Source of the DNA: an uncultured Rivularia sp.
Lineage (GTDB): Bacteria; Cyanobacteriota; Cyanobacteriia; Cyanobacteriales; Nostocaceae
Assembly: GCA_963665115.1 (NCBI GenBank)
Contig: OY762007.1
Span: 4,160,001-4,224,000 of the forward strand
Length of the DNA: 64,000 nt
Direction of reading: 5' to 3'
Shown: one piece after another, positions 3,526-38,586 of the stretch
Position numbering within the stretch: the first letter of the stretch is position 1
How the letters are laid out: each line of letters opens with the position of its first letter
Made by a program: the position numbers and the translations under genes
Notes under the pieces: generated by a model
What the model was told of the DNA's origin: nothing
The model's database searches: none
Seen by the model: the letters and a program-made list of their open reading frames with translations, nothing else

Positions 3526-5213
3526 AAATATGTTTTATCTTTAAAATAAAATACCCTAAACTGTTTGTAGAGAACAATTTTAAGCAAATTAAATGTTCTT
3601 TACAAGCAGTTATTTTTTAGGGCATATTTAGGATGAAAAAGGTGCATCAAGAAGATTTAGATGATTTATTTGAATATTTTGAAGTTCCGGCAAGCACCGA
3701 TGGAAGCTACATGGGTACACAAGCTCAGGTGAAAGCAACGCAAGAATATATGGATAAAATAATTGAGGAGAAGCTTACAAATATAAATGCAAGACTCAAG
3801 GCGAGTCAAAGCAAGGTAAGTATTAAAAAAGTTGGAAACACTCTACAGTTAAGAGCTACTCTTCCGTTAAAACCTGGCGATACTAATAAATCGGGGAGAA
3901 CTAGAAAGCAATACTTTATCTCTTTAAGTATTCCAGCGAATTTGAACGGATTAAAAACAGCTGAAGAAGAAGCTAATGAATTAGGCACGCTGATTGCAAG
4001 AAAATGCTTTGAATGGAATGACAAATATCTAGGTATAAATACAAATAAACAGGAGTATAAAACTTTTAAGCAAGTATTAGAAACTTTAGAAAATGAATAT
4101 TTTAGTACTAGAAAAAGAACTATTAAGAGCGAGCATAGTTTTTGGCATTTGTATAAACGATATAAACAATATTTTGAATCAAATTTACCAGTTACCAGTG
4201 AAAATATCATTACAATTATTAGAAATATTGGTTCCCCGACATCTCGCGACCAAGCAATCAGAGTCGCTAGGGTATTTTCTCAAATTCATCAAATAGAAGT
4301 CAATTTCAAAAATTTAAAATTGCCTGTAGTCCCTAATGATAGGTATATACCTTCAGATATTGAAATTACAGAAGCTTTTGGAAAATATAAGGTAAAAGGC
4401 AATAATACAAAAGTAAGGAAAGACTATCGAAACTCTTGGAAGCTACACAGGTTAGTATTTGGACTAATTGCTACCTATGGTTTAAGACCGCGTGAGGTAT
4501 TTAATCAACCCGATTTAGAATGGTTTTTAAGTGATGAAAATACCGATTGTACTTGGAAAGTTCATAAGTCAAATAAGACAGGTTACAGAGAAGTTTTGCC
4601 TTTTATACCAGAATGGGTAGAATTATTTGAATTAAAAAATCCAGAGGCTATTTATTTATTGAATCAAAAAATAGAACAGATAACAAGCTTTCATGAATTA
4701 TCACACTTAGTTCAAACTAATGCTCGATGGTTTAGACGCATTCTAGATCTACCGTTTGAACCTTACGATTTAAGGCACGCTTGTGCGATTAGAGCGCATA
4801 TTCAAGGTTTACCAATCAAAGCATCAGCAGATAATTTGGGGCATTCTGTAGAAATGCATACTAAAGTCTATCAGCGTTGGTTCTCTTTAGAAAATCGCAA
4901 GAAAGTTATGAAATCTGCAATCAACAAAAAATCAGATGAACAGTTAGAAGCTGAAAATATCAGGTTAATGGCAGAAAATCAACAACTGAAATACCAATTG
5001 GATAAATTACGGCAAATTTCATCAAATATTCGCTAAAAGTTCTTCAATTAGGGTAGATTTAGGATTCATCAAACCCAAGCATAATTAGCAATTTGATTTA
5101 CTGTTTTAATTTTTAGGGAGCTTGTTTAGGGTAAATTCAGGTTACTCGACTGCGGAGGTTTGCGAAACTACTGTTATATAGATTTTTCAGCAGTCGAAGA
5201 ATATCACGATTAA
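3519..5213. mobile_element. nifD excision element 1 (1,688 bp; direct repeat CGATTAA at 3519-3525 and 5207-5213)
   Basis: Excision restores GGT CCG ATT AAG GAC ATG = GPIKDM in frame; recombinase is the only gene inside. Confidence 0.92.
3633..5036 (+). CDS. XisA/XisC-like tyrosine recombinase of nifD element 1
   Basis: YGLRPRE, YDLRHACAIR, LGHSVEMHTKVYQRWF motifs. Confidence 0.93.
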   Translation: MKKVHQEDLDDLFEYFEVPASTDGSYMGTQAQVKATQEYMDKIIEEKLTNINARLKASQSKVSIKKVGNTLQLRATLPLKPGDTNKSGRTRKQYFISLSIPANLNGLKTAEEEANELGTLIARKCFEWNDKYLGINTNKQEYKTFKQVLETLENEYFSTRKRTIKSEHSFWHLYKRYKQYFESNLPVTSENIITIIRNIGSPTSRDQAIRVARVFSQIHQIEVNFKNLKLPVVPNDRYIPSDIEITEAFGKYKVKGNNTKVRKDYRNSWKLHRLVFGLIATYGLRPREVFNQPDLEWFLSDENTDCTWKVHKSNKTGYREVLPFIPEWVELFELKNPEAIYLLNQKIEQITSFHELSHLVQTNARWFRRILDLPFEPYDLRHACAIRAHIQGLPIKASADNLGHSVEMHTKVYQRWFSLENRKKVMKSAINKKSDEQLEAENIRLMAENQQLKYQLDKLRQISSNIR

Positions 5214-6343
5214 GGACATGATCCACATCAGCCACGGTCCTATCGGTTGTGGTTTCTACTCTTGGTCTGGTCGTCGTAACTACTACATTGGAACCACAGG
5301 TGTTGACTCCTTTGGTACAATGAACTTTACTTCTGACTTCCAAGAAAGAGACATCGTTTTTGGTGGAGATAAGAAGCTCGCCAAAATGATTAACGAAATT
5401 GAAGAACTCTTCCCCCTCAATAGAGGCGTATCAGTTCAATCTGAGTGTCCCATCGGTTTGATTGGTGATGACATCGAAGCGGTTGCTAAGAAGGCATCCA
5501 AAGACCTTGGTAAGCCAGTTATCCCCGCTCGTTGTGAAGGTTTCCGTGGTGTGTCTCAGTCTTTAGGACACCACATCGCTAACGATGCTATTCGTGACTG
5601 GGTATTCCCTGCTGCTGATAAAGCTCACAAGGAAAACACCCTTGATTACGAACAAGGTCCTTACGATGTATCAATCATCGGTGACTACAACATCGGTGGT
5701 GACGCTTGGTCTAGCCGTATCCTCTTAGAAGAAATCGGCTTGCGCGTAGTCGCTCAGTGGTCTGGTGATGGTACTCTCAACGAGATGATGCTCACACCGA
5801 AGGTGAAGATGAACTTGATTCACTGCTACCGTTCGATGAACTACATTTCTCGTCATATGGAAGAAGCTTATGGTATTCCCTGGATGGAATACAACTTCTT
5901 CGGACCTACCAAGATTGCTGAATCTTTGAGAGCGATCGCCGCTAAGTTCGATGAGAAAATCCAAGAGAATGCTGAGAAGGTTATTGCTAAGTACCAGCCT
6001 ACAGCTGATGCAATCCTTGAAAAATACGGCGCTCGTCTAAAAGGCAAGACTGTTGCTTTGATGGTTGGTGGTTTACGTCCTCGTCACGTAGTACCTGCAT
6101 TCACAGACTTGGGAATGGAACTTGTAAGTACTGGTTATGAATTCGGTCATAACGATGACTACAAGCGTACTACCAACTACATTGAAAACGGAACCATCGT
6201 TTACGATGACGTAACTGGTTACGAATTCGAGCAGTTTGTAAAAGGACTTAAGCCCGACATCGTTGGTGCTGGTATTAAAGAGAAGTATGTCTTCCAGAAA
6301 ATGGGTCTTCCCTTCCGTCAAATGCACTCTTGGGATTACTCCG
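5207..6343 (+). CDS. nifD: NifD fragment 2
   Basis: [13 protein letters not shown]...SECPIG...LIHCYRS...[10 protein letters not shown]. Confidence 0.96.
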
Positions 6344-6947: not shown

Positions 6948-7742
6948 TTGACAAGACAAATTATAATGTTTAATATGATTAATTTACATAACTTAATAAC
7001 ACCCAAATCGATGTCTCTGATTATTGGAACCAGGATTCATAGTGGCGGTGGTACCCATACACCTAACTTTTCTCGATTAAAAAAATGGTGCGATCAAGTA
7101 TTAGAGTACGCCGATTATGTGGTGATAGCGACCGACGAACACCTGTTCAACGACATTGCCAATAATGTTTTGGGTTTCGGGAACCGAGTACATTCCCTTT
7201 TGGTTAACCCTTGGAAAGGATTCGCTCATCCTTTAAATGCAATCGTCTATGAAGCAACTTCTTTGGGTGGCAGCAAGCTTTTACTGCAAAGTCCAGAAGT
7301 TTACGTTAATTCGGCAGACATAAAAATACTAGATTTGCATCTAACCGCAGATACATTAGTAGCCGGAGCAAAGATGATTTTAAGTCATGGAGGAGATGCT
7401 GGAGTTAAACCTATAGATGGAATGACTTCACCTTGGAATACTTTGGCTTTGTGGAATTTATCAAAATTGAATATAACGGGATTTTTAGGAGTTTCCAGCG
7501 GACTTCTTAAAGATATACCTGGAGGAATGGAAGAAGTGACAACTATTTCGCTACTGCAACAGCTTTATCCAAATGAAGCTCATGCCAAATTAGTGACTTT
7601 ATCACAGCTAAAGTGGATTAACGATTGGAAGGATTTAAAACGCAAAAAGTACCACGAACAGAAAATGTCCTCAAAATTATCCCGAGCAGAAATACAATTA
7701 AAATACTCCAATATTCAACGGGGAATCGTTACTGTTTTGTAA
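6948..7742 (+). CDS. Hypothetical protein, possibly GT-A-like fold (start may be 7011)
   Basis: 264-aa ORF ending 3 bp before the next gene; pattern YVVIATD...PLNA...LLLQSPEV, no DxD. Confidence 0.55.
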   Translation: MTRQIIMFNMINLHNLITPKSMSLIIGTRIHSGGGTHTPNFSRLKKWCDQVLEYADYVVIATDEHLFNDIANNVLGFGNRVHSLLVNPWKGFAHPLNAIVYEATSLGGSKLLLQSPEVYVNSADIKILDLHLTADTLVAGAKMILSHGGDAGVKPIDGMTSPWNTLALWNLSKLNITGFLGVSSGLLKDIPGGMEEVTTISLLQQLYPNEAHAKLVTLSQLKWINDWKDLKRKKYHEQKMSSKLSRAEIQLKYSNIQRGIVTVL

Positions 7743-7745
7743 ATC

Positions 7746-9077
7746 ATGAATCAAGAACGTTTTGTGAATTGGTCGGGGGAGTACCAATGCATACCTAATT
7801 ACGTACATCACCCTGCAACAGATGAAGAAGTTAAGGATATTGTTTGTCAAGCTATCAAACGGGGAAGCAAAATTCGAGTATTTGGTAGCGCCCATTCTCC
7901 TAGCGATATGGCGATGAGTGATGAGGAATTAGTTTGTCTTGATGGTTTAAATACGATTAAAAATATTGACTATGAAAATCAAACCGTTGTGGTTGAAGCG
8001 GGAGTTACGATTCATGATTTGAGTCAAAGTTTGGCCAAATATGGATTAGCATTACCCAATTTAGGCTCTATTTCGGCTCAAACAATTTCCGGTGCAATGG
8101 CAACTGCAACTCATGGAACGGGTTTGAATTATGGTACAATGCCGACAATTATTGAAGAAATAACTTTGGTAGATGGGAAAGGAGAAATTGTCAAGATTTC
8201 CCAATATGAAAATTCTCAATTATTCAAAGCGGTTCAATGTCATTTAGGAAGTTTGGGATTAATTACAGAATATAAATTAAAAGTCACGGAAAGTTTTGAT
8301 TTAGAAGTAAAAGAGCAACCGCAAACTTTAGAAGCCGTATTTGAGAAGTTACCGGAGTCTTTGAAATCCGACCACTATCGTTTTTGGTATTTACCTCATG
8401 CAGATATGGCTTGGGAGTGGAATGCAACTCGTAAATCACCGGAAAATATTACAGATACAGAAAACAATATTGTACGCCGTTTGGGGAACTGGTATCAACA
8501 AAAGCTTATTGGCTATTATGCTTTTGAATTTTTATTATATTTAGCTGCTTATAATCAAAATTTGATTCCTGCTATCAATCGTTGGTATGCTAAACAAATG
8601 TTTAGTCAACCGAAGCATTCACGGGGTGATAGTTTAAGTCAATTTAATTTTGATTGTCTATTTAAACAGCGGGTAAATGAATGGGCTATTCCCATAGAAT
8701 ATACCGTTCAAGCTATAGAAGAAATTCGCAATTTGATTCAAAATAAAAACTATAAAGCTCATCTTCCCATTGAAGTACGTTTCGTTAAAGGGGATGATAT
8801 ATGGTTAAGTCCTTGTCAAGGAAGAGATAGCTGCTACATCGGCATCATCGGTTATATGCCATACGGAAAATATATTGATTGTCAAGATTATTTTGATGAT
8901 TATGAAAAAATAATGCTTAGTTTTGATGGTCGTCCCCACTGGGCTAAAAGATTTGGCCCAGATGCAGAAAAATTAGCACAAATATATCCCCATTGGAAGG
9001 ATTTTCAAAAAGTACGCCATCAACTCGATCCAGAAAATCGCTTTGGTAATTCCTATAGCGATCGGGTGTTGGGGTAG
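7746..9077 (+). CDS. FAD-linked aldonolactone oxidase (L-gulonolactone oxidase/ALO family)
   Basis: GSAHSPSD FAD-attachment His motif, ATHGTG, PIEVRFVKGDDIWLSPC, GRPHWAK. Confidence 0.9.
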   Translation: MNQERFVNWSGEYQCIPNYVHHPATDEEVKDIVCQAIKRGSKIRVFGSAHSPSDMAMSDEELVCLDGLNTIKNIDYENQTVVVEAGVTIHDLSQSLAKYGLALPNLGSISAQTISGAMATATHGTGLNYGTMPTIIEEITLVDGKGEIVKISQYENSQLFKAVQCHLGSLGLITEYKLKVTESFDLEVKEQPQTLEAVFEKLPESLKSDHYRFWYLPHADMAWEWNATRKSPENITDTENNIVRRLGNWYQQKLIGYYAFEFLLYLAAYNQNLIPAINRWYAKQMFSQPKHSRGDSLSQFNFDCLFKQRVNEWAIPIEYTVQAIEEIRNLIQNKNYKAHLPIEVRFVKGDDIWLSPCQGRDSCYIGIIGYMPYGKYIDCQDYFDDYEKIMLSFDGRPHWAKRFGPDAEKLAQIYPHWKDFQKVRHQLDPENRFGNSYSDRVLG

Positions 9078-9187
9078 AGGGGGTAGAGGGGGTAGAGGGG
9101 GTAGAGGGGGAGAATAAAAATAACTTTGAGATTTACTTAAAATCCAAAATCCAAAATCCAAAATCTAAAATCTAAAATCTAAAATCA
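9070..9187 (+). repeat. Tandem short repeats (GGGGTAGAG)n and (AAATC[C/T]A)n
   Basis: Seen directly between the two oxidoreductase genes. Confidence 0.85.
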
Positions 9188-9188
9188 A

Positions 9189-10436
9189 ATGACAGATATT
9201 TTAGTTGTCGGAACGGGGGAATATGTTACGGGTTTTGTTCGGGGAGCGGCTGCTGATTCTGATAAAAGCGCTGGTGTAATCGGATTGGTGCTTTTTGATT
9301 TGAGAAGTCGTGGTAAGGTAAATCAAATTGCTTTGTGCGGTCGTGATGGCAAGACTTTTCCGGGTATTCGCGGTCATTTTACTGAGAAAATTGCCAAGCA
9401 ATATGAAGGGATAGATATTAACGTAAATACTTTTCCCGGTGACGATCAATATAATCCTCAAGCTTATCAAACTGCGATCGAGAAAATGAAACCTGGGGAT
9501 GGGGTGATTGTCGTCACACCCGATGATACTCATTTTGAAATGGCGATGACAGCTATTCGTCATGGATTGCACGTTTTGGTTGTAAAGCCTTTGGTGAAAA
9601 CTTTAGAAGAGCATCAGAAATTAATAGAAGTTGGGAAACAGCATAACGTACTGGTGGCAATCGAAATGCATAAAAGATTTGACCCCATGTACTCCGACGC
9701 TCGCGATCGCGTTCGTAGTTTTGGAGATTTTAGCTATATGAATAGCTATATGAGCCAACCTCGGAGTCAGCTGCACACTTTTGGTAAATGGGCTGGAAAA
9801 TCTTCTGATATCAACTACTATCTGAATTCCCATCATATCGATCTATTGGATTGGATGGTCAGCGATTTTGCTAGACCAATTAAAGTAACTGGTTTGGGTG
9901 CTACCGGAGTTGCTAAAAACGAGTTTGACATAAATACCGAAGATACTATTACCACTACAATTCAATGGGAAAATATTCAAAGTGGGAATTTAGGAATTTC
10001 CGTTCATACTGCTTCGTGGATTGCTCCGAAATCTGACGTTCATTCCCAACAACGTTTCTTTTATATGGGACATCAAGGTGAATTACAAATTGACCAAGCT
10101 CATAGGGGTTATTCATCCGCAACAGTTTCCGGAGGATATGCTAGTATCAATCCTTTATTTATGAAATACGAACCTTCCAACGGTAAATTTGCCGGTCAAA
10201 GAGCTTATGGTTATCAAAGCATTGAAAAATTTATTGATGCTGTAGCTGGTATTAAGGAAGGAGCAAAACCAGAAGATTTTGATAACGATATAGCAACCGC
10301 TGGGAAAACATTACAAACAACAGCGATTTTAGAAGCAAGTCGTATTAGCTTGGATAATGATAATTCGTCAGTTGAAATTGAATATAATTCTTCTGAATCG
10401 CTGATTCCAGAAAAATTAAAAAAGGTTAAAGGTTAG
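9189..10436 (+). CDS. Gfo/Idh/MocA oxidoreductase, D-galacturonate reductase (fungal GaaA)-like
   Basis: VGTGEYVTGFV, LFDLRSRGKV, HKRFDPMYSDAR, SYMSQPRSQLHTFGKWAGKSSDINYYLNSHH, TEDTIT, NPLFMKY. Confidence 0.8.
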   Translation: MTDILVVGTGEYVTGFVRGAAADSDKSAGVIGLVLFDLRSRGKVNQIALCGRDGKTFPGIRGHFTEKIAKQYEGIDINVNTFPGDDQYNPQAYQTAIEKMKPGDGVIVVTPDDTHFEMAMTAIRHGLHVLVVKPLVKTLEEHQKLIEVGKQHNVLVAIEMHKRFDPMYSDARDRVRSFGDFSYMNSYMSQPRSQLHTFGKWAGKSSDINYYLNSHHIDLLDWMVSDFARPIKVTGLGATGVAKNEFDINTEDTITTTIQWENIQSGNLGISVHTASWIAPKSDVHSQQRFFYMGHQGELQIDQAHRGYSSATVSGGYASINPLFMKYEPSNGKFAGQRAYGYQSIEKFIDAVAGIKEGAKPEDFDNDIATAGKTLQTTAILEASRISLDNDNSSVEIEYNSSESLIPEKLKKVKG

Positions 10437-10672
10437 AGGTCAAAGGTTAAAGGTTAAAGGTTAAAGGTTAAAGGTTAGAGGTCAAAGTTTTTTAAATCGT
10501 ACTATTTAGTTTTGAATCTCTTTTTCCGTTTGTATCAAAATTATTTTACCTCCTCTTCCTTCTCTTTCCTCTGCGTCCTCTGCGGTTTATAATCTACTTT
10601 ATTTTCATACAAACAAATTAATGTATCTTCCGTCTTGTATAGTAAAAAACCGTATCTTATATAATAAAAACC

Positions 10673-12374
10673 ATGCAAAATAACAATCATATTAGTGAAA
10701 AATATAATAAATATTTAGAATACGAAAATCAAAGATTTAAAGAATTAGCCGAGCAAAATGTAAATAGCTGGGCTGATGTTTGGCAACAGTCAGTAGATAA
10801 ATATCCCGAAAAACCAATTGTTCGTGAAGTGGGTTCGTCAAAACCTTGGACTTATCAAGAACTTGACCGTGCAGCCAATAAAATTGCCACTTGGGCTATT
10901 TCTTTAAATCAAAATAATAAAAATAAAAATAAAAAATATATCGGAGTTCATCAAAGTAACAGTGCTGTTTTATTAGCAACTGTATTGGGATTAGCTAAAG
11001 CGGGAATTACCGCAGTTTTATTTAATGTTAGAGAATCCGAGCAGAAATTATCAACTTTAGCGTCTGATTGTGGAGTTGAAATAAATATAGGTAAACCAAT
11101 TCCATCAGTAAAGAGCTTCGATCCGAATTTAATTCTGTCAGCAGAATGGGAAGGAAGAATTTCCAAAGAGCATCGCGATCGCATTACTATAGAAGATCCA
11201 GTAGTAATTATCTTCACCAGCGGCACCAGCGGACGTAGTAAACCAGCACTTTTTAATCATCGTCGCATGATTGGAGCGGGAATTGCTTGGTCTTTAAGAA
11301 CTGAAATGACACAGGAAAGTAACTGTTATATAACTTTGCCTTTATATCACGGTAACGGTTTAGCAGTAGCTTTTGCTAGTTGTGTAGAAGCGGGAGCTTG
11401 TGCTGTAGTTAGAGAGAAATTTTCGGTACGAGCTTTTCTAGATGATGTGCGTAATTATAATTGCGATTCCGTTGTTTATATAGGAGAACTTTGGCGATAT
11501 TTAGCTAATAGTCCCCAAAAACCGGATGACAAAGATAATCCTTTAAAAGTTATTTTTGGCAATGGTTTGTCATCTGGATTGTGGGAAAATACTATTGAAA
11601 GATTTGGGATTGAAAGAGTTGTAGAACATTTTGGTGCTACAGAAATGCCAGCATCAGCTTTGACAAACTGGACGGGAAAACCTGGTTATTGTGGTTTTAT
11701 TCCTCCAAATCATCCCAATGCTGAAAATGTAGTGTTGGTTGACGAACAAGGAAAACCCGTTGCAATGGGAGAAATTGGACAAGCTTTGTTACGGGTTCCC
11801 GGCGATCGCTATCGAGGTTATCTCGACTCTTCACTTGATGAAAGTAAAATTTGGGAAAATTTATTGGAAACCGGGGGATTTATGGTGGTGTTCTGGAGAC
11901 TTGTTATCTAGAAATGCTGACGGTTTTTTTGCATTTATCGATCGTATGGGAGATACCTTTCGTTGGAAAGGAGAAAATGTTGCTTGTCAGGAAGTAGAAG
12001 AAGCAATTTTGTCAACTGGTTTAGTTAAAGAAGCGGTAGTATATGGAGTTGAGATTCCCAAAGCATCGGGTAAAGTTGGGATGGCATCTCTTTTAACCAT
12101 AGAATCTTTTTTTGAAGGTAATATTGATAATTTTTTAAATCAACTCAAAGAACTTTTACCTCCCTATGCGATTCCCCATATTATTAGATTAGTAGAACAG
12201 CATCATCAAACAACTTCTACAATGAAAATTCTTAAATCCCAATTACAGAAACAGGGATTTCAACAAATTGATAAATATCCGCATTTTATTCTTGTGGAAG
12301 GTAAGTATGTTGTTTTGACAAGAGATTATCTATCAAAGTTGGAGAATGGTAAGTTAAATTTCGGATTTCGCTAG
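10673..12374 (+). CDS. FATP/very-long-chain acyl-CoA synthetase-like adenylating enzyme (one +1 frameshift near 11870)
   Basis: IFTSGTSGRSK, TLPLYHGNG, FGATE, DRMGDTFRWKGENV; two ORFs join as LLEPGDLWWCSGD after removing one base. Confidence 0.85.
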
Positions 12375-12429
12375 AAAATAGAATCCCTTCCCCTCTCCTT
12401 AATAAGGAGAGGTTTTGAGTATAAATTAC

Positions 12430-12633
12430 GTAGGTTGGGTTAGACGCGCAAAATATTTGATTATTAACGAACAAATTCGATTAGCGTCGTAACCCAACAT
12501 TTCTATTGTTAATTAAATAAGAAATACTTTTTAAAATTTGAATTGAATTATCTTAGATATCGAATGTTGGGTTACGACGCAATATAAGTTATGATGAATA
12601 ATTTAATTTTGTCGTGCGTATAACCCAACCTAC
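12430..12633. repeat. GTAG-type REP doublet / MITE-like element, copy 1
   Basis: GTAGGTTGGGTTA...TAACCCAACCTAC inverted ends with internal palindromes; near-identical copy at 21219-21555. Confidence 0.8.
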
Positions 12634-12748
12634 AACTATTGATTTAACAGAATATCCTTTACCTCCAATCGAACTGATATTTAATCAATTAATTTATATG
12701 GTTAGTAATGCGTAGGTTAGGTTAGACGTACAAAGATATTTAATTATT

Positions 12749-13168: not shown

Positions 13169-15062
13169 ATGACATTCGCCAAGTCGAGCTTAAGTATATA
13201 CGATCTGCTTGAAGGTAGTGCTAAAAAAAATCCCGAGAATATAGCTATTGTAACTACTCAAAAGTCTCCTCTCACTTACAGCAGTTTGCTTAATGCTGTA
13301 AACGATGTACGAAGCAAGTTAAACCTAATGGGTATAGGTCGTAATGACCGAGTAGCTGTGGCTTTACCTAACTCCCCAGAGATGGCTGTGACTTTTTTAG
13401 CTATTGCTTCTTGTGCGACTTGTGCCCCTCTCAATCCTAATTATCGTGAATCGGAATACGATTTTTATCTTTCCGATTTAGATGCTAAAGCCTTAGTCTA
13501 TCAGTCGGGAATTGCTGAAGCTGCTGTGGAAGTAGCGAAACAAAAAGGTATTTCCTTAATAGAACTTTCTACAGAAAAAGAAGCCGTATCGGGTATTTTT
13601 CAATTGACGGTTGGGGAAGCGAAGAATCCAATTCAAAGCGGTATTGCTCAATCAGAAGATGTGGCCCTTGGTATTGCATACTTCCGGAACCACCTCTCGT
13701 CCCAAAATGGTTCCACTCACCCATAGTAATCTTTGCACCTCTGCTGAAAATATTTCCTCCACACTTAATTTAGTAGAGAATGACCGTTGTCTGAATGTAA
13801 TGCCTTTATTCCACATTCACGGACTTATAGGAGCTTTACTCTCATCGCTGAATGTTGGAGCAAGTATAGCTTGTACACCAGGATTTTACGCTCCTAATTT
13901 CTTTAAATGGGTCGAGGAATTACATCCTACTTGGTATTCAGCAGTTCCCACCATGCATCAAGCAATTTTGGCGCGGGTAGAGACGAATAGTGAAATTATT
14001 GCTAGTTCTCAAATCCGCTTAATTCGTTCTTCTTCTGCTCCTTTACCACCTCGAATAATGACAGAATTGGAACAAGTTTTTAATGTTCCGGTAATTGAAT
14101 CTTATGGGATGACAGAAGCCTCTCATCAAATGGCTAGTAATCCTCTTCCTCCCTTTATACGTAAACCTGGTTCGGTAGGGATTGCAGCAGGGCCAGAAGT
14201 TGCAATTATGGATGATACGGGTAAATTATTGTCATCTGGAGAAATTGGAGAAGTAGTAATTCGGGGAGTCAATGTTACTCAAGGTTACGAAAATAATCCC
14301 CAAGCAAACAAAACTGCTTTTACTAATGGTTGGTTTCGGACGGGTGATTTGGGTTATTTAGATAAGGATAATTATCTATTCCTCAAGGGTCGAATTAAAG
14401 AAATTATTAACCGTGGTGGGGAAAAGATTTCTCCTCGTGAAGTTGATGAAGTGCTTTTAGATCATCCAAACATTGACCAAGTTGTTACCTTTGCGGCTCC
14501 TCATACTCTTTTGGGTGAAGATGTTGCTGCTGCTGTGGTTTTAAAACAAGGTGCATCATTAACAGAACTAGAAATCAAGGAATTTGCAGCATTAAAACTA
14601 GCTGATTTTAAAATTCCTCGTGTAGTGTTATTCGTAGATGAAATACCGAAAGGTCCTACAGGTAAAAGACAGCGTATAGGTTTAGCCCAAAAATTAGGAT
14701 TAACAGCTTCCGATCCTACTGCAACTACAGAATATGCACCTCCGACAACAGCTATAGAAGAAAAATTAGTTCAAATTTGGTCTAAGGTATTAGGCGTTGA
14801 AAAGGTAGGAATTAACGATAACTTTTTCGGGTTAGGAGGAGATTCTATCTTAGCGGCTCAAATTATCAATAGAGTTCGCGAAGTTTTGCAAGTTGAGTTA
14901 TCTTTTCTAATCTTCTTTGAACAACCTACTGTTGCGAGTATGGCAATCAAAATCACTCAAAATCAGGCTGAAGAAGTAATGTCTGAAGAATTAGATGATG
15001 TATTAAACAACTTAGAATCTCTTTGCGAGTCAGAAGTTGAAAAACTGTTAGGACAGATGTAG
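13169..15062 (+). CDS. Oxalate-CoA ligase (AAE3/Pcs60)-like adenylation domain fused to a carrier protein (one +1 frameshift at CCC 13665-13667)
   Basis: LHTSGTTSRPK, VMPLFHIHGL, WYSAVPTMHQ, RSSSAPL, YGMTEASHQMASNPLP, PCP motif LGGDSIL. Confidence 0.82.
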
Positions 15063-15099
15063 TTAAATAATACCTATTACAATTAATTGCAACTAGATT

Positions 15100-15933
15100 A
15101 TGGATAATTCCCCAAATTACTTACGAGAAGAATTGAAAGCAAAAGACATCATTCCTTTCATTGGTGTTTATGATGCTTTCTCAGCTTCAATAGCAGCTAA
15201 ATATTACAAAGGTATTTTTATTAGTGGTTTTGGTTTTGCAGCTAGCCACTATGGCTTACCAGATATTGGATTTATTTCTTGGTCTGATATTGTCGCTTTT
15301 GTCCAAAGGGTGAAAAATTTACTTCCCAATCACCACATTATTGTTGATATTGATGATGGCTATGTAGATACAGAAGTTGCTTGTCATGTAGTTTCTTTAT
15401 TGGAATCTATTGGTGCGGCTGGAATAATTATTGAAGACCAAAAACGACCTCGTAGATGCGGTCATGTTGATGGCAAAATATTGATGGAATTAGATGAATT
15501 TATAGATAAATTAAAACAAGTTTTAGCTGCTCGTAAAGATATTTTTGTAGTGGCTCGGACAGATGCAAGCGATACCTCAGAAATTATTAAAAGAGCTAAA
15601 GCTTATGCAGAAGTAGGAGCAGATGCCATATTGGCTGATGGAATTCATGATTTAGATGTAATTAGAACTCTTAAAAATCAAGTTGATAAGCCTTTAGTAT
15701 TTAATCAAATAGCGGGTGGAAAATCTCCTGAATGCAGTTTAACTGATTTGAAAAAAGCAGGTGTATCTCTTGTTAATTACAGTACACCATGCCTATTTGC
15801 AGTTCAAACAGCGATTGAAGACGAGATGAAATTGCTTAGAGAAAATGACGGGTGGTTGCAAAAACAACGTGTGGGTGTACGAGAGTGTAACGCGCATTTA
15901 CATGAGAATCTTGCAAATAAGAAAAATTATTAA
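15100..15933 (+). CDS. Isocitrate lyase/PEP mutase family enzyme (oxaloacetate acetylhydrolase/methylisocitrate lyase-like)
   Basis: VDIDDGY, IEDQKRPRRCGH, ARTDA. Confidence 0.85.
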   Translation: MDNSPNYLREELKAKDIIPFIGVYDAFSASIAAKYYKGIFISGFGFAASHYGLPDIGFISWSDIVAFVQRVKNLLPNHHIIVDIDDGYVDTEVACHVVSLLESIGAAGIIIEDQKRPRRCGHVDGKILMELDEFIDKLKQVLAARKDIFVVARTDASDTSEIIKRAKAYAEVGADAILADGIHDLDVIRTLKNQVDKPLVFNQIAGGKSPECSLTDLKKAGVSLVNYSTPCLFAVQTAIEDEMKLLRENDGWLQKQRVGVRECNAHLHENLANKKNY

Positions 15934-15960
15934 AAACTAATTATATTTTTGTTAATAAAC

Positions 15961-18900
15961 ATGAAAGATATCACCCAACGTATTGCAAATCTCTCACCAG
16001 CAAAACGAGCGCTTCTAGAACAGCAACTTCATAAAAAAGCATTACAAACTAAACAAGAGAACAACATCTCTCCGAGAAAACAATATCAAGACACTCCCTT
16101 ATCGTTTTCTCAGCAAAGAATGTGGTTGCTAGACCAATTAGAACCTGGAAATCCAGCTTATAATCGTCCGGCAAATATTAGTTTGACTGGTACGATCAAT
16201 GTACAAGTATTGGAAAAAATTCTCAACGAAATAATACGTCGTCACGAAGTCTTACGTACTAGCTTTGAGGAAGTAAACGGACAACCTTTTCAGAAAATCA
16301 CTCCGAATATAACTTTAAAGCTACCAATAGTAGACCTCAGTAATTTAAATGATGAAAATAAAGAAATTGAAGTTCAAAAACTAGCGACTGAAGAAGCACA
16401 GCAGACCTTTGATTTAACTCAAGTTCCTTTAATAAAAGCTAAATTGGTACGACTCCACGAGCAGAAACATATACTCTTGCTGACAATGCATCATATTGTC
16501 TTTGATGGTTGGTCTATGGGAGTTCTACTCAAGGAAGTAGGAGAACTTTACCAAGCTTTCTCAACGGGTAAACCATCTCCTCTACCAGAATTACCCATCC
16601 AATATGCTGACTTTGCTGTTTGCCAGAGAGAATGGTTAACAGATAAAGTTCTAGACAAGCAACTAAATTATTGGAAACAGCAACTAGCAGGTGCAAATCC
16701 AGTACTGGAATTACCCACAGACAGTCTACGTCCACCAGTGCAGACTTATAATGGTGCTACTGCTACTCTCATCCTACCTCGAAGCTTGAACTATAGACTC
16801 CAACAGCTTTGTCGTCAGGAAGGGGTGACATTATTCATGACCTTATTGGCTGCATTTGGGACTCTACTCTACCGTTATACCGGGCAAGAAGATATTCTGA
16901 TTGGTTCGCCCGTTGCCGGTCGCAACCGGGGAGAGATTGAACAATTAATCGGATTATTTGTCAACACAGTTGTTTTGCGGACTAGTTTTACCAAACAAGA
17001 TAGTTTTCGTTCTTTGTTAGCTCAAGTTAGAGAAGTTACCTTGGGTGCTTATGACCATCAAGCTATGCCTTTTGAGAAACTGGTAGAAGAATTCCAGCTT
17101 GAGCGAGATACCAGCCGCAACCCTTTATTTCAGGTGTGGTTTAATATGCTCAACTTGAAAGATATCCAACTCGAACTACCGGGGATAAATGTAGAATCTA
17201 TTTCTGCGGGGGAAGCAGCTTCCAAGTTTGATTTAACTTTATATGTGGCAGAGCAAGAAGATGGATTGAAACTAAAATTAGTCTATAATTATGACTTGTT
17301 TGCGACCGAGCGGATGATGGAAATGCTCAATCAATACCACCATTTACTTTTGCAGATAGTTGAAAATCCAGAAGTTAATATTAACGAACTGTCTATAGTA
17401 ACTCAGTCAGCTAAATCATTCTTACCAAATCCTCAAAAGCAACTTTCTAGTAAATGGGAAGGAGATATTCCTAAGTTATTTTCTCAACAAGCTCAAAGGG
17501 TACCACAGCATCTAGCGGTTGTGGATGCCCAAGTTGCTTGGACTTACGACGAACTAGAGAAACGTGTTAACCAACTCGCAAACTATCTACTGGGAAATAA
17601 TATACAACAGCAGGATATTGTTGCTATTTACGCTCAGCGTAGGGTTAGGCTAGTTTGGGCAATTTTGGGAGTTCTCAAAGCTGGTGCTGCATTTGTAATT
17701 CTCGATTCAGCTTATCCCACTTTTCGTTTAATTGATTGTCTGCAACTCGTTAAACCCCGTGGCTGGTTACAAATTGATTCTGAGGAACTTCCCACTGACT
17801 TGCAAGAGTATGTGAATTCTTTATCTTTTGATTGTCAGCTTAATCTTCCCCAAGATTCAACATCGGCAATTTCTGAAAAATTAAAAGATTATCCAACTAA
17901 CACTCCAGAAATAATAATTGAGCCAGATAATTTAGCATATGTTGCGTTTACCTCTGGTTCTACGGGAAAACCAAAAGGGATAAAAGGAACTCACAGACCT
18001 CTATCCCACTTTTTACAATGGCATTATCAAACCTTTGGTTTAAATCAGTCTGACAAATTTAGTATGCTCTGCGGTCTGTCCCATGACCCATTGTTACGGG
18101 ATATCTTCACCCCATTGTCGTTAGGTGCGACTTTATATATCCCCAGACAGGAAGATATTTATTCACCACCAAAATTAACCAATTGGATGGTAGAACAGCA
18201 AATTAGTATTGCTCATTTAACACCAGCAATGGGGCAAATGTTGAGTGCAGATACTAAAACTACTACAAAATACCTTCGTTATCTATTTTTTGGGGGTGAT
18301 GTATTAACAAAAATTGACGTAGAAGGAATTACTAAATTTGCTCCAAACGCTACCCAAGTTAATTTCTACGGTTCTACTGAAACTCCCCAAGCAATGGGCT
18401 ATTTTATTATTCCCCGCGATTGCTTACTATCGAATACCGTACCTTTGGGTAAAGGCATTGACGATGTACAATTATTACTTCTTAATTCTAAGCAGCAGTT
18501 AGCTGGGATTGGAGAGTTAGCAGAAATCTATGTTCGTACCCCTTACTTAACTAAAGGCTATATCAACAGTGAAGAATTGACGGATCAAAGGTTTATTGTT
18601 AATCCCTTCGCAAAAAATCCTGAAGATAAACTTTATAAAACTGGGGATTTAGGACGCTATTTAAGTAATGGTAATATCGAATTTTTTGGTCGTATCGATA
18701 ACCAAGTAAAGATTCGCGGCTTCCGCATCGAATTGGGAGAAATAGAATCTTTACTTAATACCCATCCCCAAATCCAACAAGCTGTAGTTATTGTCCGAGA
18801 AGATATCAGTAACGACAAACGCTTAGTTGCCTATCTAGTTCAAGATGAATCACTTACTACCGAAGAAGTACGTGAATTTGTCAAGCATAAGTTACCAGAA

Positions 18901-20226
18901 TATATGGTGCCTAGTACCTTTGTTAGCTTAGAGAACATACCTTTAACAGCTAACGGCAAAGTAGATAGAAAAGCATTACCCGCACCAGATTCATTAAGTA
19001 TTAATTTAGAGAATAATTTTGTTAAACCCAGTAATTATACAGAAGAAATCTTAGCAACTATTTGGGCAGATGTTCTGGGTGTAGAGCAAGTAGGAATTCA
19101 TGACAACTTCTTTGAATTGGGCGGTCATTCGTTGTTAGCTATGCGCTTAGTAGCACAAATAGAACAAGTAACTCAGAAAAAACTACCATTAGCTGCTCTA
19201 TTTAAATTTACAACAATCTCGGAACTAGCCAATCTGATCCAAAACGAAGTTGCAGATACCAATCCAAATTTATCAGTGGACTTACCGTCAATAGACACAG
19301 ATATTTTTCGTGCATTATTAACTATAATCGCTGGTAGGGAAGGAGCGCGACCAAGACCTGATTCTCTAATGGTTGCATTTCGTGAAACAGGAAAAAAGCC
19401 TCCCTTATTTTTCTGCGCTAATGCTACATGGGAAATACGTCCCCTTACCCAGTATCTAGATGAAGAGCAACCAATTTATTTACTAGAATCTGGTTATGCT
19501 GTTTTTGATCGGAAAGGTCAATTAAACAAGGCTCCTAGAGATGATATTAAGGCGATCGCTACTCGTCACGTCCGCGATATATTATTAATAAATCCAGAAG
19601 GACCGTATTTTTTGATCGGATATTCTTTTGGAAAACTTGTAACCTATGAAATAGCTAAGCAATTGCAAGCAAAGGGAAAGAAAATTGCATTGTTAGCAAT
19701 CTTAGATACTCCCGGTTCGGCAAAAACTTATCAGTATACAAAAAAAATATTGGTAGGGATAGCTGAAATGTCACAGGAGCTATTTAGTGGTTCATTACTA
19801 AGTTTTACTAAACGTTTTGGTTTATCGATATGGAAAGTAAAAGAAGATTTGGCAGAAATTGGTAGCAAAACTATTGTAAAACTTTTGCGTATAAATAATT
19901 TTTCTCATAAATCCGACCTTGACTCCAATCCTATTTCCGAGAAACAGCAAAACAATCCAGAAATTAAAGAATCCATATCTTATATGGAGCAAAATAAAGC
20001 GAAGTACATAATGGAAGGCTATCAAGGCAAAATTACGTTTTTTGTTACTTCCGTTGTTCGTCGTAACCATAACAAAATTCTACGTCGGCTATTTCCTTTA
20101 ATGGGTTGGAACAAACACGTTATAGAAAAAGTCAAAGTCCCCGGCGACCATAATAGCATGGTAAGAGAACCTGACGTGAAAGCCTTAGCAGAAAGTTTAA
20201 TGGATATACTCGCAAATCTGAAATGA
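15961..20226 (+). CDS. Monomodular NRPS C-A-PCP-TE
   Basis: C domain HHIVFDGWS; A domain FTSGSTGKPKG, YKTGD, KIRGFRIELGEIE; PCP LGGHSLL; TE GYSFG and GDH. Confidence 0.93.
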   Translation: MKDITQRIANLSPAKRALLEQQLHKKALQTKQENNISPRKQYQDTPLSFSQQRMWLLDQLEPGNPAYNRPANISLTGTINVQVLEKILNEIIRRHEVLRTSFEEVNGQPFQKITPNITLKLPIVDLSNLNDENKEIEVQKLATEEAQQTFDLTQVPLIKAKLVRLHEQKHILLLTMHHIVFDGWSMGVLLKEVGELYQAFSTGKPSPLPELPIQYADFAVCQREWLTDKVLDKQLNYWKQQLAGANPVLELPTDSLRPPVQTYNGATATLILPRSLNYRLQQLCRQEGVTLFMTLLAAFGTLLYRYTGQEDILIGSPVAGRNRGEIEQLIGLFVNTVVLRTSFTKQDSFRSLLAQVREVTLGAYDHQAMPFEKLVEEFQLERDTSRNPLFQVWFNMLNLKDIQLELPGINVESISAGEAASKFDLTLYVAEQEDGLKLKLVYNYDLFATERMMEMLNQYHHLLLQIVENPEVNINELSIVTQSAKSFLPNPQKQLSSKWEGDIPKLFSQQAQRVPQHLAVVDAQVAWTYDELEKRVNQLANYLLGNNIQQQDIVAIYAQRRVRLVWAILGVLKAGAAFVILDSAYPTFRLIDCLQLVKPRGWLQIDSEELPTDLQEYVNSLSFDCQLNLPQDSTSAISEKLKDYPTNTPEIIIEPDNLAYVAFTSGSTGKPKGIKGTHRPLSHFLQWHYQTFGLNQSDKFSMLCGLSHDPLLRDIFTPLSLGATLYIPRQEDIYSPPKLTNWMVEQQISIAHLTPAMGQMLSADTKTTTKYLRYLFFGGDVLTKIDVEGITKFAPNATQVNFYGSTETPQAMGYFIIPRDCLLSNTVPLGKGIDDVQLLLLNSKQQLAGIGELAEIYVRTPYLTKGYINSEELTDQRFIVNPFAKNPEDKLYKTGDLGRYLSNGNIEFFGRIDNQVKIRGFRIELGEIESLLNTHPQIQQAVVIVREDISNDKRLVAYLVQDESLTTEEVREFVKHKLPEYMVPSTFVSLENIPLTANGKVDRKALPAPDSLSINLENNFVKPSNYTEEILATIWADVLGVEQVGIHDNFFELGGHSLLAMRLVAQIEQVTQKKLPLAALFKFTTISELANLIQNEVADTNPNLSVDLPSIDTDIFRALLTIIAGREGARPRPDSLMVAFRETGKKPPLFFCANATWEIRPLTQYLDEEQPIYLLESGYAVFDRKGQLNKAPRDDIKAIATRHVRDILLINPEGPYFLIGYSFGKLVTYEIAKQLQAKGKKIALLAILDTPGSAKTYQYTKKILVGIAEMSQELFSGSLLSFTKRFGLSIWKVKEDLAEIGSKTIVKLLRINNFSHKSDLDSNPISEKQQNNPEIKESISYMEQNKAKYIMEGYQGKITFFVTSVVRRNHNKILRRLFPLMGWNKHVIEKVKVPGDHNSMVREPDVKALAESLMDILANLK

Positions 20227-20380: not shown

Positions 20381-20728
20381 TTATATGGCTATCTGATTTA
20401 TCGGTGAAATTTCTGCAATACTAAACTTTGCAATCTCCTTTGCTTTGATAATTGCTCGCTTTCTCCAAAAAGACGGAAGCCAAGGAACTTGTTTGGCAAT
20501 AGTCTTATTTAAGTCGGCAAAAGCAGATATCGTAAAGTTGATATTTTCTACTTTTGCATTAAATTCTTGAAAAATAGCCGGTTGGGAATCAACGGGATAG
20601 TTATAGTGGCTTAATAAAGCGTAGGGAAGCCAGTTATCTATAAAAAAAATTGGTAAAAATGCGATTACTATGCCGATGAGAAAATTCTTCCACAACTGTG
20701 GAATATTTTTGTAAATCAAAATTATCAC
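20381..20728 (-). CDS. Hypothetical protein with N-terminal TM helix
   Basis: ORF overlapping the upstream gene stop by 4 bp. Confidence 0.5.
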   Translation of the reverse strand: MIILIYKNIPQLWKNFLIGIVIAFLPIFFIDNWLPYALLSHYNYPVDSQPAIFQEFNAKVENINFTISAFADLNKTIAKQVPWLPSFWRKRAIIKAKEIAKFSIAEISPINQIAI

Positions 20729-21129: not shown

Positions 21130-21218
21130 CCGTATAACGAGTGATGATATCTAGAAATTTTTATAAACGTTAACCGAAATATTACGGTAAAATTCTTTTT
21201 TCGATTTTGTTTAGATGC

Positions 21219-21555
21219 GTAGGTTGGGTTAGACGCGCAAAGACATTTAATGATTAACGAATCAATTTGATTAGCGTCGTAACCCAACATTTCTATTGTT
21301 TTAGGACTTACGTAAAAGGGACGAATTTACGTTATTATTCGCTGCGCGAAATAATCTCCCCAGACGCTGAAATTTCTTCCCTACAATGCGTTCCGGTCGC
21401 AATGACAATTCAAGATGCGTAAGTCCTGTGTTTATTAAATAAGAAATAATTTTAAAAATTTGAATTGAATTATCTTAGATATCAAATGTTGGGTTACGAC
21501 GCAATATAAGTTATGATGAATAATTTAATTTTGTCGTGCGTCTAACCCAACCTAC
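21219..21555. repeat. GTAG-type REP doublet / MITE-like element, copy 2, with nested MITE at 21302-21428
   Basis: Matches 12430-12633; nested unit has TIR AGGACTTACG/CGTAAGTCCT and 5-bp target duplication TGTTT. Confidence 0.8.
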
Positions 21556-21579
21556 AACTACGATTACAAATTCAATTAT

Positions 21580-23246: not shown

Positions 23247-25337
23247 ATGAAAGACCTCACTCGTTATCGAAATATCGGCATCTTCGCTCACGTTGATGCA
23301 GGAAAAACAACCACAACTGAAAGAATTCTCAAGCTTACTGGTAAGATCCACAAAATCGGTGAGGTTCATGAAGGTGCGGCGACAACGGACTTTATGGATC
23401 AGGAGCAGGAGCGCGGTATTACGATTCAATCCGCTGCTACAAGCTGCTTCTGGAACGAACATCAATTGAATATCATCGATACCCCTGGGCACGTTGATTT
23501 CACGATTGAGGTATATCGTTCTCTCAAGGTTCTGGACGGCGGAATCGGCGTATTTTGTGGCTCTGGTGGTGTGGAACCCCAGTCGGAAACCAACTGGCGC
23601 TATGCTAACGACTCGGAAGTTGCGCGTGTTATTTACGTTAACAAGCTCGACCGCATAGGAGCAGATTACTACCGCGTTATCAAACAGGTGGAAGATGTGC
23701 TTGCTGCTAAGCCGTTGGTTATGGTACTACCTATCGGTACCGAAAGTGAATTTTCTGGCGTTGTTGACTTGCTGACTCGTAAAGCATGGGTGTGGGATGA
23801 TTCCGGCGACCCTATGAACTACGAGATTAAGGAAGTTCCGGAAAACATGAAGGATGATGTCGAAACTTGGCGCGAAAAGCTAGTTGAAATCGCTGTGGAA
23901 CAAGACGATGCGTTGATGGAAAAATACCTTGAAGGTGAAGAGGTATCCGTAGATGAGTTGAAGCGCTGTATCCGCAAGGGCACCATTGACTTAGCATTCT
24001 TCCCTACTTACTGTGGTTCTTCCTTTAAAAACAAGGGCGTACAATTAGTACTCAATGCAGTTGTTGACTATTTGCCTAACCCCAAAGAAGTCAAGCCTCA
24101 GCCCGAAGTTGACCTTGAAGGTAACGAAACTGGCGAATTTGCCGAAGTTGACTCAGAAGCACCATTGCGGGCGCTAGCATTCAAAATCATGGACGATCGC
24201 TTCGGTGCTTTGACCTTTACTCGCATATATTCAGGTACCCTTTCAAAAGGTGATACCATCCTCAATACCTATACTGGTAAAACCGAGCGTGTCAGTCGTC
24301 TTGTAGAAATGCACGCCGATTCTCGCGAAGAAATCGATACAGCCCAAGCTGGAGATATTGTCGCGATTGTGGGTATGAAGAACGTCCAAACCGGACATAC
24401 CTTGTGCGACCCCAAGGACCCCGCAACCCTAGAACCAATGGTGTTTCCAGACCCCGTAATCTCTATTGCGATAGCACCTGCGAAGAAAGGAAGCTCCGAG
24501 AAACTCGGTATGGCTTTGAGCAAGATGGTTCAAGAAGATCCTTCCTTCCAGGTTGAAACCGACAAAGACAGCGGTGAAATGATTATCAAAGGGATGGGAG
24601 AACTGCACCTGGATATTAAAGTTGATATCCTCAAGCGGACTCACGGCGTTGAAGTGGAAGTTGGTAAGCCCCAAGTAGCATACCGCGAATCTATTACTAA
24701 GCGCATCGAAGACACCTACATCCATAAAAAGCAATCCGGTGGTTCCGGTCAATTCGGTAAGATTGAATATATTATCGAACCTGGCGAACCCGGTACTGGC
24801 TTCGAGTTCCAGTCCAAAGTAACTGGTGGTAACGTACCCAGAGAATTTTGGCCCGCAGTTCAAAAGGGTTTTGAAAGCAGTATTGACAAAGGTGTTTTAG
24901 CTGGATTCCCCTTGGTAGACGTGAAAATTACCTTAACTGACGGTGCTTATCACCCAGTTGACTCCAGCGCGATCGCGTTTGAGATTGCAGCGAAATCCGG
25001 TTATCGTCAAACTTTACCAAAAGCCGGTCCTCAGTTGCTTGAGCCAGTTATGAACGTAGACGTATTTACACCTGACGACCACGTTGGTGATGTAATTGGC
25101 GACTTAAACCGTCGTCGTGGCATGATTAAATCCCAAGATCCAGGTGCTACAGGGGTTCGCATCAAGTCAGAAGTTCCTCTAAGCGAAATGTTTGGTTACA
25201 TCGGCGATTTACGTACCATGACTTCCGGTCGCGGTCAGTTCTCAATGGAATTTGACCACTACGCACCATGTCCTAGAAATGTCGCTGATGAAGTTATTAA
25301 GGAAGTGAAAGAACGCGATGCTGCTGCTAAGAAGTAA
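23247..25337 (+). CDS. fusA: Elongation factor G paralog (stand-alone, outside the str operon)
   Basis: [41 protein letters not shown]; 696 aa. Confidence 0.95.
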
Positions 25338-36184: not shown

Positions 36185-36341
36185 GGATTACTCCGGTCCT
36201 TATCACGGTTATGATGGCTTCGCTATCTTCGCTCGTGACATGGATCTAGCAATCAACAATCCTTCCTGGAAATTGATTGGAACTCCTTGGAAGAAAGAAG
36301 AAGCTGCTGCTACTAATCAAGCTGCTAAAGCTTCTGTTTAG
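36185..36341 (+). CDS. nifD: NifD fragment 3 (C-terminus)
   Basis: [51 protein letters not shown]. Confidence 0.95.
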
Positions 36342-36452: not shown

Positions 36453-36724
36453 ATGCCACAGAATCCAGATAAAATTCAAGATCACGTAGAGCTATTTCAC
36501 CAGCCTGAATACCAAGAGCTTTTCGAGGGCAAGAAGAAGTTTGAAGGTGGACACGACCCCCGAAGAAGTTAAGAAAATTGCAGAATGGACTAAATCTTGG
36601 GAATATCGCGAAAAGAACTTCAGCCGTGAAGCTTTGACCGTAAACCCTGCTAAAGCTTGTCAGCCTTTAGGAGCAATCTATGCTGCTGCTGGCTTTGAAG
36701 GTACATTACCTTTCGTCCAAGGCA
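36453..36724 (+). CDS. nifK: NifK fragment 1 (+1 frameshift in C5 run 36557-36561)
   Basis: MPQNPDKIQDHVELFHQPEY...NPAKACQPLGA...GFEGTLPFVQG. Confidence 0.93.
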
Positions 36725-38561: not shown

Positions 38562-38586
38562 GTCAAGGTTGTGTGGCTTACTTCCG
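38553..38586 (+). CDS. nifK: NifK fragment 2 (34-bp micro-fragment, QGSQGCVAYFR)
   Basis: tc CAA GGC AGT CAA GGT TGT GTG GCT TAC TTC CG supplies exactly the residues missing between fragments 1 and 3. Confidence 0.93.

Follow-up and report, generated by a model that had tools for sequence, protein, structure and literature searches.

A three-gene operon in a Rivularia nifD element predicted to prime a nonribosomal peptide synthetase with oxalate

In the enterobactin EntB/EntE/EntF system and in lipopeptide starters of the FAAL-ACP type, a precursor enzyme and an acid-adenylating enzyme with a carrier are combined with one condensation-adenylation-thiolation-thioesterase (C-A-T-TE) module of a nonribosomal peptide synthetase (NRPS). 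We analysed a window of 64,000 nucleotides from an uncultured Rivularia sp. (contig OY762007.1, positions 4,160,001 to 4,224,000), a heterocyst-forming, nitrogen-fixing cyanobacterium, in which three head-to-tail genes separated by gaps of 37 and 15 bp encode a ligase-carrier fusion, a carbon-carbon lyase and a single-module NRPS (Table 1). This operon follows the same logic, except that its predicted starter is oxalate and that its C domain scores as elongation-type rather than EntF-like. A sequence-only reading had described the parts as a ligase-like A domain fused to a peptidyl carrier protein (PCP), an ICL/PEP-mutase-family enzyme with a CGH loop and a single C-A-PCP-TE module, and all of them were found where it had placed them. 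We judge it probable from the sequences that the assembly line of this operon starts from oxalyl. Whether the whole route holds, with lyase-made oxalate, an oxalyl-primed NRPS and N-oxalyl-glutamate or N-oxalyl-aminoadipate as the product, is evenly balanced, every substrate being a prediction.

The end result would resemble that of the grass-pea route to beta-N-oxalyl-alpha,beta-diaminopropionate (beta-ODAP), likewise an N-oxalyl amino acid. Plants use coenzyme A (CoA) and a BAHD acyltransferase, as set out in the accessible part of PMC9485241, whereas here a carrier-fused ligase would hand the oxalyl group to an NRPS C domain. The bacterial oxalate route on record in the accessible part of PMC11045627 is that of Burkholderia obcAB. 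The operon likely represents the known logic of acyl-primed NRPSs with a new starter: oxalyl initiation is known from plants, and no oxalyl-primed bacterial NRPS was found described among the papers listed by a literature search that reached few subscription journals. To the described systems the locus adds a covariation of ligase pocket and lyase, a spurious frameshift, a domain swap with an orphan Lys2-like A domain and a recent insertion into a nifD element.

In the proposed route, the lyase would convert oxaloacetate to oxalate and acetate, and the first adenylation domain would turn oxalate into oxalyl-AMP and then into oxalyl-S-carrier. The C domain would transfer the oxalyl group to a carrier-bound dicarboxylic amino acid, at its alpha-amine; this acceptor is likely glutamate or aminoadipate, and the A domain may activate it at the side-chain carboxyl, as Lys2 and ACV synthetase do. 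Hydrolytic release by the TE would then yield N-oxalyl-glutamate or N-oxalyl-aminoadipate, a small tricarboxylate that could serve as a metal chelator or a metabolite mimic.

The best structural relatives of the ligase-carrier are the oxalate-CoA ligases of the AAE3/OCS/Pcs60 type (5IE0, 6QJZ, 8AFF). The three nearest solved structures are AtAAE3, LsOCS and 8aff, the last of which we take to be yeast Pcs60. The window gene matches them with E-values of 1e-100 to 1e-106, the next acyl-CoA ligase reaching 1e-53, and the intact gene of the nearest relative compared (genome G711, locus L008; same genus, about 98% identity across the operon) matches them with 1e-117 to 1e-127. According to the accessible part of PMC8905533, oxalate is contacted directly in AtAAE3 by Ser289, His319 and Lys500, the first two of which occur specifically in oxalyl-CoA synthetases. 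The window keeps all of them, and among the homologs listed Ser289 is present in 120/120, His319 in 119/120 and Lys500 in 120/120; the equivalents of His214, Ser289, His319 and Lys500 lie at 13812, 14034, 14124 and 14664. The carrier Ser at 14844 is intact in all 120 listed homologs, and the protein ends in an acidic docking helix. The top structural matches and the three conserved contacts bear out the sequence-only view of the first A domain as oxalate-CoA-ligase-like. AAE3 and Pcs60 are stand-alone, CoA-using enzymes, whereas the window protein is fused to a PCP, so it is not a classical member of that group; it likely activates its acid as AAE3 does, and the predicted acceptor of the oxalyl group is its own carrier.

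Stand-alone cyanobacterial relatives of about 500 aa (around 50% identity) keep Ser289 and His319 and share with the window a change to Ser288, and a PanE-family reductase adjoins the ligase in 5 of the 7 regions fetched. PMC9485241, in its accessible part, names PanE as the enzyme that reduces oxalyl-CoA in Methylobacterium, and this neighbourhood therefore supports oxalate as the substrate of the bacterial clade. A search of the window's genome with one query found no PanE-like reductase. The stand-alone AAE3-like ligase is frequent in the family (L199-L206) and, with the PanE-family reductase, likely forms an unannotated cyanobacterial oxalate-assimilation pair. A further set of related proteins (L121, L122, L124-L128) has the architecture A-T-TE without a C domain; two of these have the oxalate pocket and a lyase, and the others, sometimes in tandem, have the altered pockets HIHASGMPK, HVQGGGMSK and HVQGGGMCK.

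The loop EDQKRPRRCGH at 15433 places the product of the second gene in the lyase branch of its superfamily; the corresponding loop of phosphoenolpyruvate (PEP) mutase is EDK...NS. PEP mutase and phosphonopyruvate hydrolase were rejected because of this loop and of curated profile scores far below the cut-offs (86 against 320 bits and 65 against 374 bits). The 2-methylisocitrate lyase PrpB and carboxyphosphoenolpyruvate (CPEP) mutase were rejected for scores below the cut-offs (165 against 354 and 122 against 420) and for a Ser instead of Pro at a marker column. Neither PEP mutase nor methylisocitrate lyase, the two identities that the sequence-only reading had set against its own prediction, thus agrees with the scores, the loop and the marker Ser. 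This column, Ser228, was read from a profile of 24 homologs and is presumably the published marker serine (Ser281) of oxaloacetate acetylhydrolase (OAH). It holds Ser in OAH (3lye) and the petal death protein and Pro in dimethylmalate lyase and 4iqd; the motif YSTP is found in 80/80 of the closest lyase homologs, and ordinary lyases in the family have Ser at this column in 0/23 cases (18 Pro, 5 Ala). A serine marker distinguishes active OAH, as far as the accessible part of PMC3256194 goes.

The single-sequence fold of the lyase was poor, with a predicted local distance difference test (pLDDT) score of 50. An alignment-based model (pLDDT 80) confirmed the ICL/PEPM fold, with template modelling (TM) scores of 0.85-0.86 to the petal death protein (1ZLP) and the OAH 3m0j, and did not separate OAH from other lyases. 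Fungal OAH (3LYE) and the petal death protein share the fold, the CGH loop and the marker-column serine with the window lyase, which differs from them in an identity below 30% and in having Asp180 and Ala205 in the place of two conserved Glu. The lyase represents a separate bacterial subfamily with an OAH-type serine, for which cleavage of oxaloacetate to oxalate and acetate is predicted. An oxalate-type ligase adjoins the lyase in 9 of the 80 closest loci, namely 8 above 400 bits and the split gene of L005; the L011 record ends just upstream of the lyase, and L009 has a different ligase and a small carrier-like open reading frame (ORF). An SBF-like transporter adjoins the lyase in 36 of the 69 ligase-free loci (L013-L081), and the actinomycete combination of lyase and transporter is a possible oxalate production-and-export or catabolic pair.

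We surveyed 389 genomes of the window's family and detected the lyase subfamily in 7 of them. The ligase-carrier fusions were classed into 15 genomes with an oxalate pocket and 16 in which Ser289 or His319 is replaced, with G648 and several second copies left out of these classes. The lyase subfamily was present in 6 of the 15 oxalate-pocket genomes, adjacent in all 6, and in 0 of the 16 altered-pocket genomes (Fisher p 0.007, a value that is overstated because kin are not independent). In L003, L006, L114, L115, L116 and L119, a C domain follows the oxalate-pocket ligase-carrier directly within the same protein, and the split forms carry matching acidic (end) and basic (start) helices; because of these fusions and helices, we regard the ligase-carrier as a starter module. 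The first modules after the starter differ widely, with what we take to be Ile, Ser, Thr, Gly or Orn/Lys/Arg-type codes and in some cases a formyltransferase insert; the cassette is therefore portable. It is present in records of Coleofasciculus, Chamaesiphon and Pirellula.

Modules of the type C-formyltransferase-partial C-A occur in the oxalate-type cassettes of L003, L004, L006, L007, L011 and L115, in the first four of these directly after the starter, and in L005 a thiamine-diphosphate enzyme with a docking helix follows the ligase-carrier instead. P0154, a candidate for a fused version of the two genes, was rejected, as its first domain (33%) is without the oxalate pocket.

The NRPS retains its catalytic motifs (HHIVFDG, carrier Ser1061, TE Ser1226 and His1401), a catalytic Asp of the TE was not located in its sequence, and the genome carries one phosphopantetheinyl transferase. 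Mapping of the A domain onto the LgrA alignment reproduced the specificity code DPRHFGFQAK proposed in the sequence-only reading; Asp235, Pro236 and Arg239 are present, and the motif HDPxxRDxF occurs once in the whole genome. The Lys2-like character proposed for this domain was upheld by its best NCBIfam match, the Lys2 profile TIGR03443, at 478 bits (240 for a control A domain of L113), and the code presumably also resembles those of McyE-type domains. A Lys2 aminoadipate reductase proper was rejected: the architecture is C-A-T-TE and not A-T-reductase, there being no reductase domain as in Lys2, and the full-length NRPS scores 627.5, below the cut-off of 1030. A DPR-type code and a Lys2-like A domain are common to the window NRPS, Lys2, module 1 of ACV synthetase and A1 of the zeamine synthetase Zmn16. 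The code DPRHLALLAK, from which that of the window differs at 4 of 10 positions, is assigned to aminoadipate by prediction in the accessible parts of PMC3547906 and PMC12283262, and ACV synthetase adenylates aminoadipate at the delta-carboxyl according to that of PMC7884236.

By sequence comparison, the NRPS is a mosaic, in which the C-domain N-lobe and the TE belong to the oxalyl cassette and the C-lobe and the Lys2-like A core have been swapped in. Residues 1-200 share 52-77% identity with C domains that follow oxalate-type starters (L113, L004, L007) versus 17-50% with DPRH modules, and for residues 401-920 the relation is reversed (24-44% versus 50-78%). The start of the TE (residues 1121-1220) is 69% identical to the NRPS of G706, a genome of the same genus in which the three-gene operon recurs with an Ile-type code, versus 29-38% to DPRH modules, which indicates that the TE was not imported with the A domain. 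The exchange of C-lobe and A core implies that the amino acid was changed while the donor side was kept. The window's version of the operon is found intact, with the same code, in L133.

In a quick C-domain tree (L008 left out), a single branch (96%) gathers 9 of the 19 first C domains, and the whole C domain of the window groups with those of DPRH modules, a placement accounted for by its mosaic origin. Its matches to elongation-type C domains (Txo, TycC) have E-values of 1e-87 to 1e-96 and stand far above those to EntF profiles. An ESM Atlas search returned generic NRPS clusters alone, and plasmid searches retrieved no close relative. A two-module A-T-C-A-T-TE NRPS with the codes DPWATGCIDK and DPRHFA(F/Y)QAK recurs in Scytonema-type genomes (L135, L136, L138, P0123-P0143) and is adjoined by a DUF6875 gene in L135, L136 and L138.

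In the assembly, the ligase-carrier gene is split at 13665. We compared four public sequencing runs (X1-X4, X4 being from a related strain), which all come from one study and are therefore not mutually independent. X2 and X3 are letter-identical to the window across the site except that the base at 13665 is missing, X4 likewise lacks it, and X1 alone carries the extra base as the window does. The identical run pattern recurs at 11868 (acyl-CoA synthetase), 34865 (xisA) and 36557 (nifK), so the one-base error is systematic and common to X1 and the assembly. The ligase-carrier of L008 is a single intact ORF of 630 aa, and the 120 listed homologs are mostly 610-660 aa long. The frameshift, whose reality the sequence-only reading had named as a threat to its prediction, is an assembly error; the ligase-carrier gene is intact, and all three operon genes are real. 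Other apparent pseudogenes of this genome deserve distrust in view of the insertions at 11868, 34865 and 36557.

The sequence-only reading had placed the cluster on DNA excised in heterocysts, and the operon does lie inside a nifD interruption element of 29.9 kb. The element is bounded by exact GGATTACTCCG repeats that split nifD (of 12 matches with at most 2 mismatches, no others are exact) and has an xisA-like gene (34793-35965) at its far end, beyond which lie the last 51 nifD codons. We take it to be an Anabaena-type nifD interruption element with xisA, with which it shares the 11-bp repeats and the xisA-like recombinase, while it measures ~29.9 kb and carries lineage-specific cargo. No excised nifD joint was seen in the comparison of the runs. 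The nifD elements of 5/5 relatives (G712, G707, G690, G688, G694) keep the flanking genes without the operon at this site, the operon of G706 stands in an unrelated neighbourhood, and REP-like repeats edge the inserted operon. The nifD element thus acquired the operon recently, and its place there is probably incidental.

Several observations weigh against the complete route as proposed. The identity of the lyase to every solved relative is about 27-29%; OAH ranks first by neither sequence nor fold and fifth by profile (about 28% identity), and Asp180 and Ala205 are invariant where OAH, the petal death protein and dimethylmalate lyase carry Glu. Because 69 of the 80 closest lyase loci, almost all from actinomycetes, have no oxalate-type ligase in the fetched flanks, the lyase subfamily also works outside NRPS clusters. 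Among the family genomes, 9 of the 15 with an oxalate pocket are without the lyase subfamily and must source the acid elsewhere, and G516 has the lyase alone. Of the positions that shape the ligase pocket, His216 and Met314 are kept, and Ile, Ser and Gly replace Val215, Cys288 and Ala313. The three-gene operon itself contains no transporter or tailoring gene. The lyase residues unlike OAH, the scarcity of ligases beside lyase homologs, Ser288 and Gly313 in the pocket and the thiamine-diphosphate enzyme of L005 would suit another small acid as starter (glyoxylate, pyruvate, glycolate or malonate), with an alkylmalate-type lyase yielding a 2-oxo acid for the ligase. We consider this unlikely, since the three direct oxalate contacts are all kept, no relative in which Ser289 or His319 is lost has the lyase (0/16), the stand-alone Ser288 relatives adjoin a PanE-family reductase, and AAE3 enzymes are strict for oxalate in the accessible part of PMC9485241. 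Slightly better placed, yet still doubtful, is an oxalyl start with a different acceptor (Asn or Gln, or a beta- or omega-amino acid) or with a TE that, rather than hydrolysing the side-chain thioester, cyclises it or passes it on to an amine. DPRHFGFQAK is an orphan code: 39 of its exact copies were counted in the 120 NRPS relatives listed, no product being named for any of them, and no characterised A domain with this code was found in the literature searched; the published assignment of DPRHVSLLAK, as far as the accessible text goes, is Asn. Moreover, side-chain activation would be pointless if the TE merely hydrolysed the thioester, which hints at another fate. On the other side, Asp235, Arg239 and the strong Lys2 profile score fit an amino-dicarboxylate, and the TE is nearer to the oxalyl-cassette NRPS of G706 than to DPRH modules.

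The function of the product has been tied to the site of the operon. The sequence-only reading had linked the cluster to heterocysts, NtcA and 2-oxoglutarate, and to ascorbate through the adjacent operon; neither link found support in the comparison. That the product is a 2-oxoglutarate mimic tuning NtcA-dependent heterocyst differentiation, possibly fed by the neighbouring ascorbate-type operon, is in our view very improbable. In its favour, the operon does lie inside the nifD element, and N-oxalyl amino acids resemble N-oxalylglycine, a 2-oxoglutarate analogue. Against this, no canonical NtcA box (GTA-N8-TAC) was found between 7795 and 18318, none of the five relatives' elements has the operon at this site, in G706 it lies elsewhere, and the cassette also occurs in the Coleofasciculus, Chamaesiphon and Pirellula records, organisms that are not known to form heterocysts. 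The lactone-oxidase operon next to the cluster is not co-inherited with it: of 27 genus genomes, 11 have it and 4 have the oxalate-type ligase-carrier, G000 and G711 being the only ones with both. A broader version, in which an OAH-type lyase, an oxalyl starter and the domain swap would lead to N-oxalyl-glutamate or N-oxalyl-aminoadipate as a naturally made equivalent of N-oxalylglycine, which would antagonise 2-oxoglutarate at the dioxygenases, PII or NtcA of the producer or its neighbours, appears improbable as well, though less so. Least probable of all is a decaying insertion with a real frameshift and no product. The extra base stands at high depth in X1, the NRPS of L008 carries another one-base frameshift, and the lyase of G706 is split; but X2 and X3 are without the base and otherwise show no difference, X1 and the window have like errors in nifK and xisA, every catalytic motif is intact, and L133 has all three genes whole with the same code. 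For the operon we retain a predicted oxalyl start, with an N-oxalyl dicarboxylic amino acid as the candidate product.

Table 1. Features of the oxalyl-type operon and of the surrounding nifD element in the window
Feature	Position	Strand	Remarks
Ligase-carrier gene (AMP-binding + PP-binding)	13169..15062	+	ORFs 13169-13726 and 13611-15062, split in assembly
ICL/PEP-mutase-superfamily C-C lyase gene	15100..15933	+	Pfam PEP_mutase/ICL; loop EDQKRPRRCGH; predicted oxalate-forming
Single-module NRPS C-A-T-TE, 1425 aa	15949..20226	+	ATG at 15961; N-terminal docking helix
Condensation domain	16087..17418	+	HHIVFDG at 16489; N-lobe of oxalyl-cassette type, C-lobe from DPRH-type module
Lys2-like adenylation domain	17479..18960	+	Code DPRHFGFQAK; motif HDPLLRDIFTPL at 18082
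NRPS PCP domain	19048..19239	+	Ser1061 at 19129
Thioesterase domain	19426..20223	+	GYSFG Ser1226 at 19624; His1401 at 20149
One-base assembly insertion (apparent frameshift)	13664..13667	+	Missing in 3/4 runs and in L008
REP/MITE-like repeat, left edge of inserted cargo	12426..12647	.	Core 14-mer 119x in genome
REP/MITE-like repeat, second copy, right cargo edge	21215..21569	.	132 nt at 96% identity to 12507-12638
Left 11-bp repeat of nifD interruption element	6333..6343	+	Exact GGATTACTCCG
Right 11-bp repeat of nifD element	36185..36195	+	Exact GGATTACTCCG; last 51 nifD codons follow

A promoter scan remained at chance level (21 found versus 28.3 expected). Downstream of the NRPS, the window holds remnants of an alpha/beta-hydrolase gene (20381-20728) that is whole in L008 (15292-16221). 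The REP/MITE-like repeats flank a variable cargo site, with other genes between them in G690. Elsewhere in the element, a four-gene run at 6948-12374 (an unassigned protein of 255-268 aa, a sugar-1,4-lactone oxidase, a Gfo/Idh/MocA oxidoreductase and a long-chain acyl-CoA synthetase), a possible ascorbate-type pathway, and a second elongation factor G gene (23247-25337) are both kept in the nifD elements of relatives; the nifD element of G711 contains an IS200-like Y1 transposase gene. Outside it, a small element carrying two tyrosine recombinases (37048-38439 and 38926-40314) appears to interrupt nifK at 36720-40420, and another recombinase (43963-45351) separates nifE from the 3' part of nifN. 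In G711, nifK and nifEN are without these recombinase insertions. A 467-aa ORF (3633-5036) upstream of the 3' part of nifD has no family match.

If the proposed start is correct, oxalate would be a further NRPS starter unit beside fatty and aryl acids, and an OAH-type route to oxalate would exist in bacteria in addition to that of Burkholderia obcAB, an unrelated enzyme type. The G000/G706 pair presents a natural exchange of C-lobe and A core in the same scaffold that is directly useful for NRPS engineering. With three genes in 7 kb, the operon is the smallest test case for an oxalyl starter, and it could also assign the common orphan code DPRHFGFQAK.

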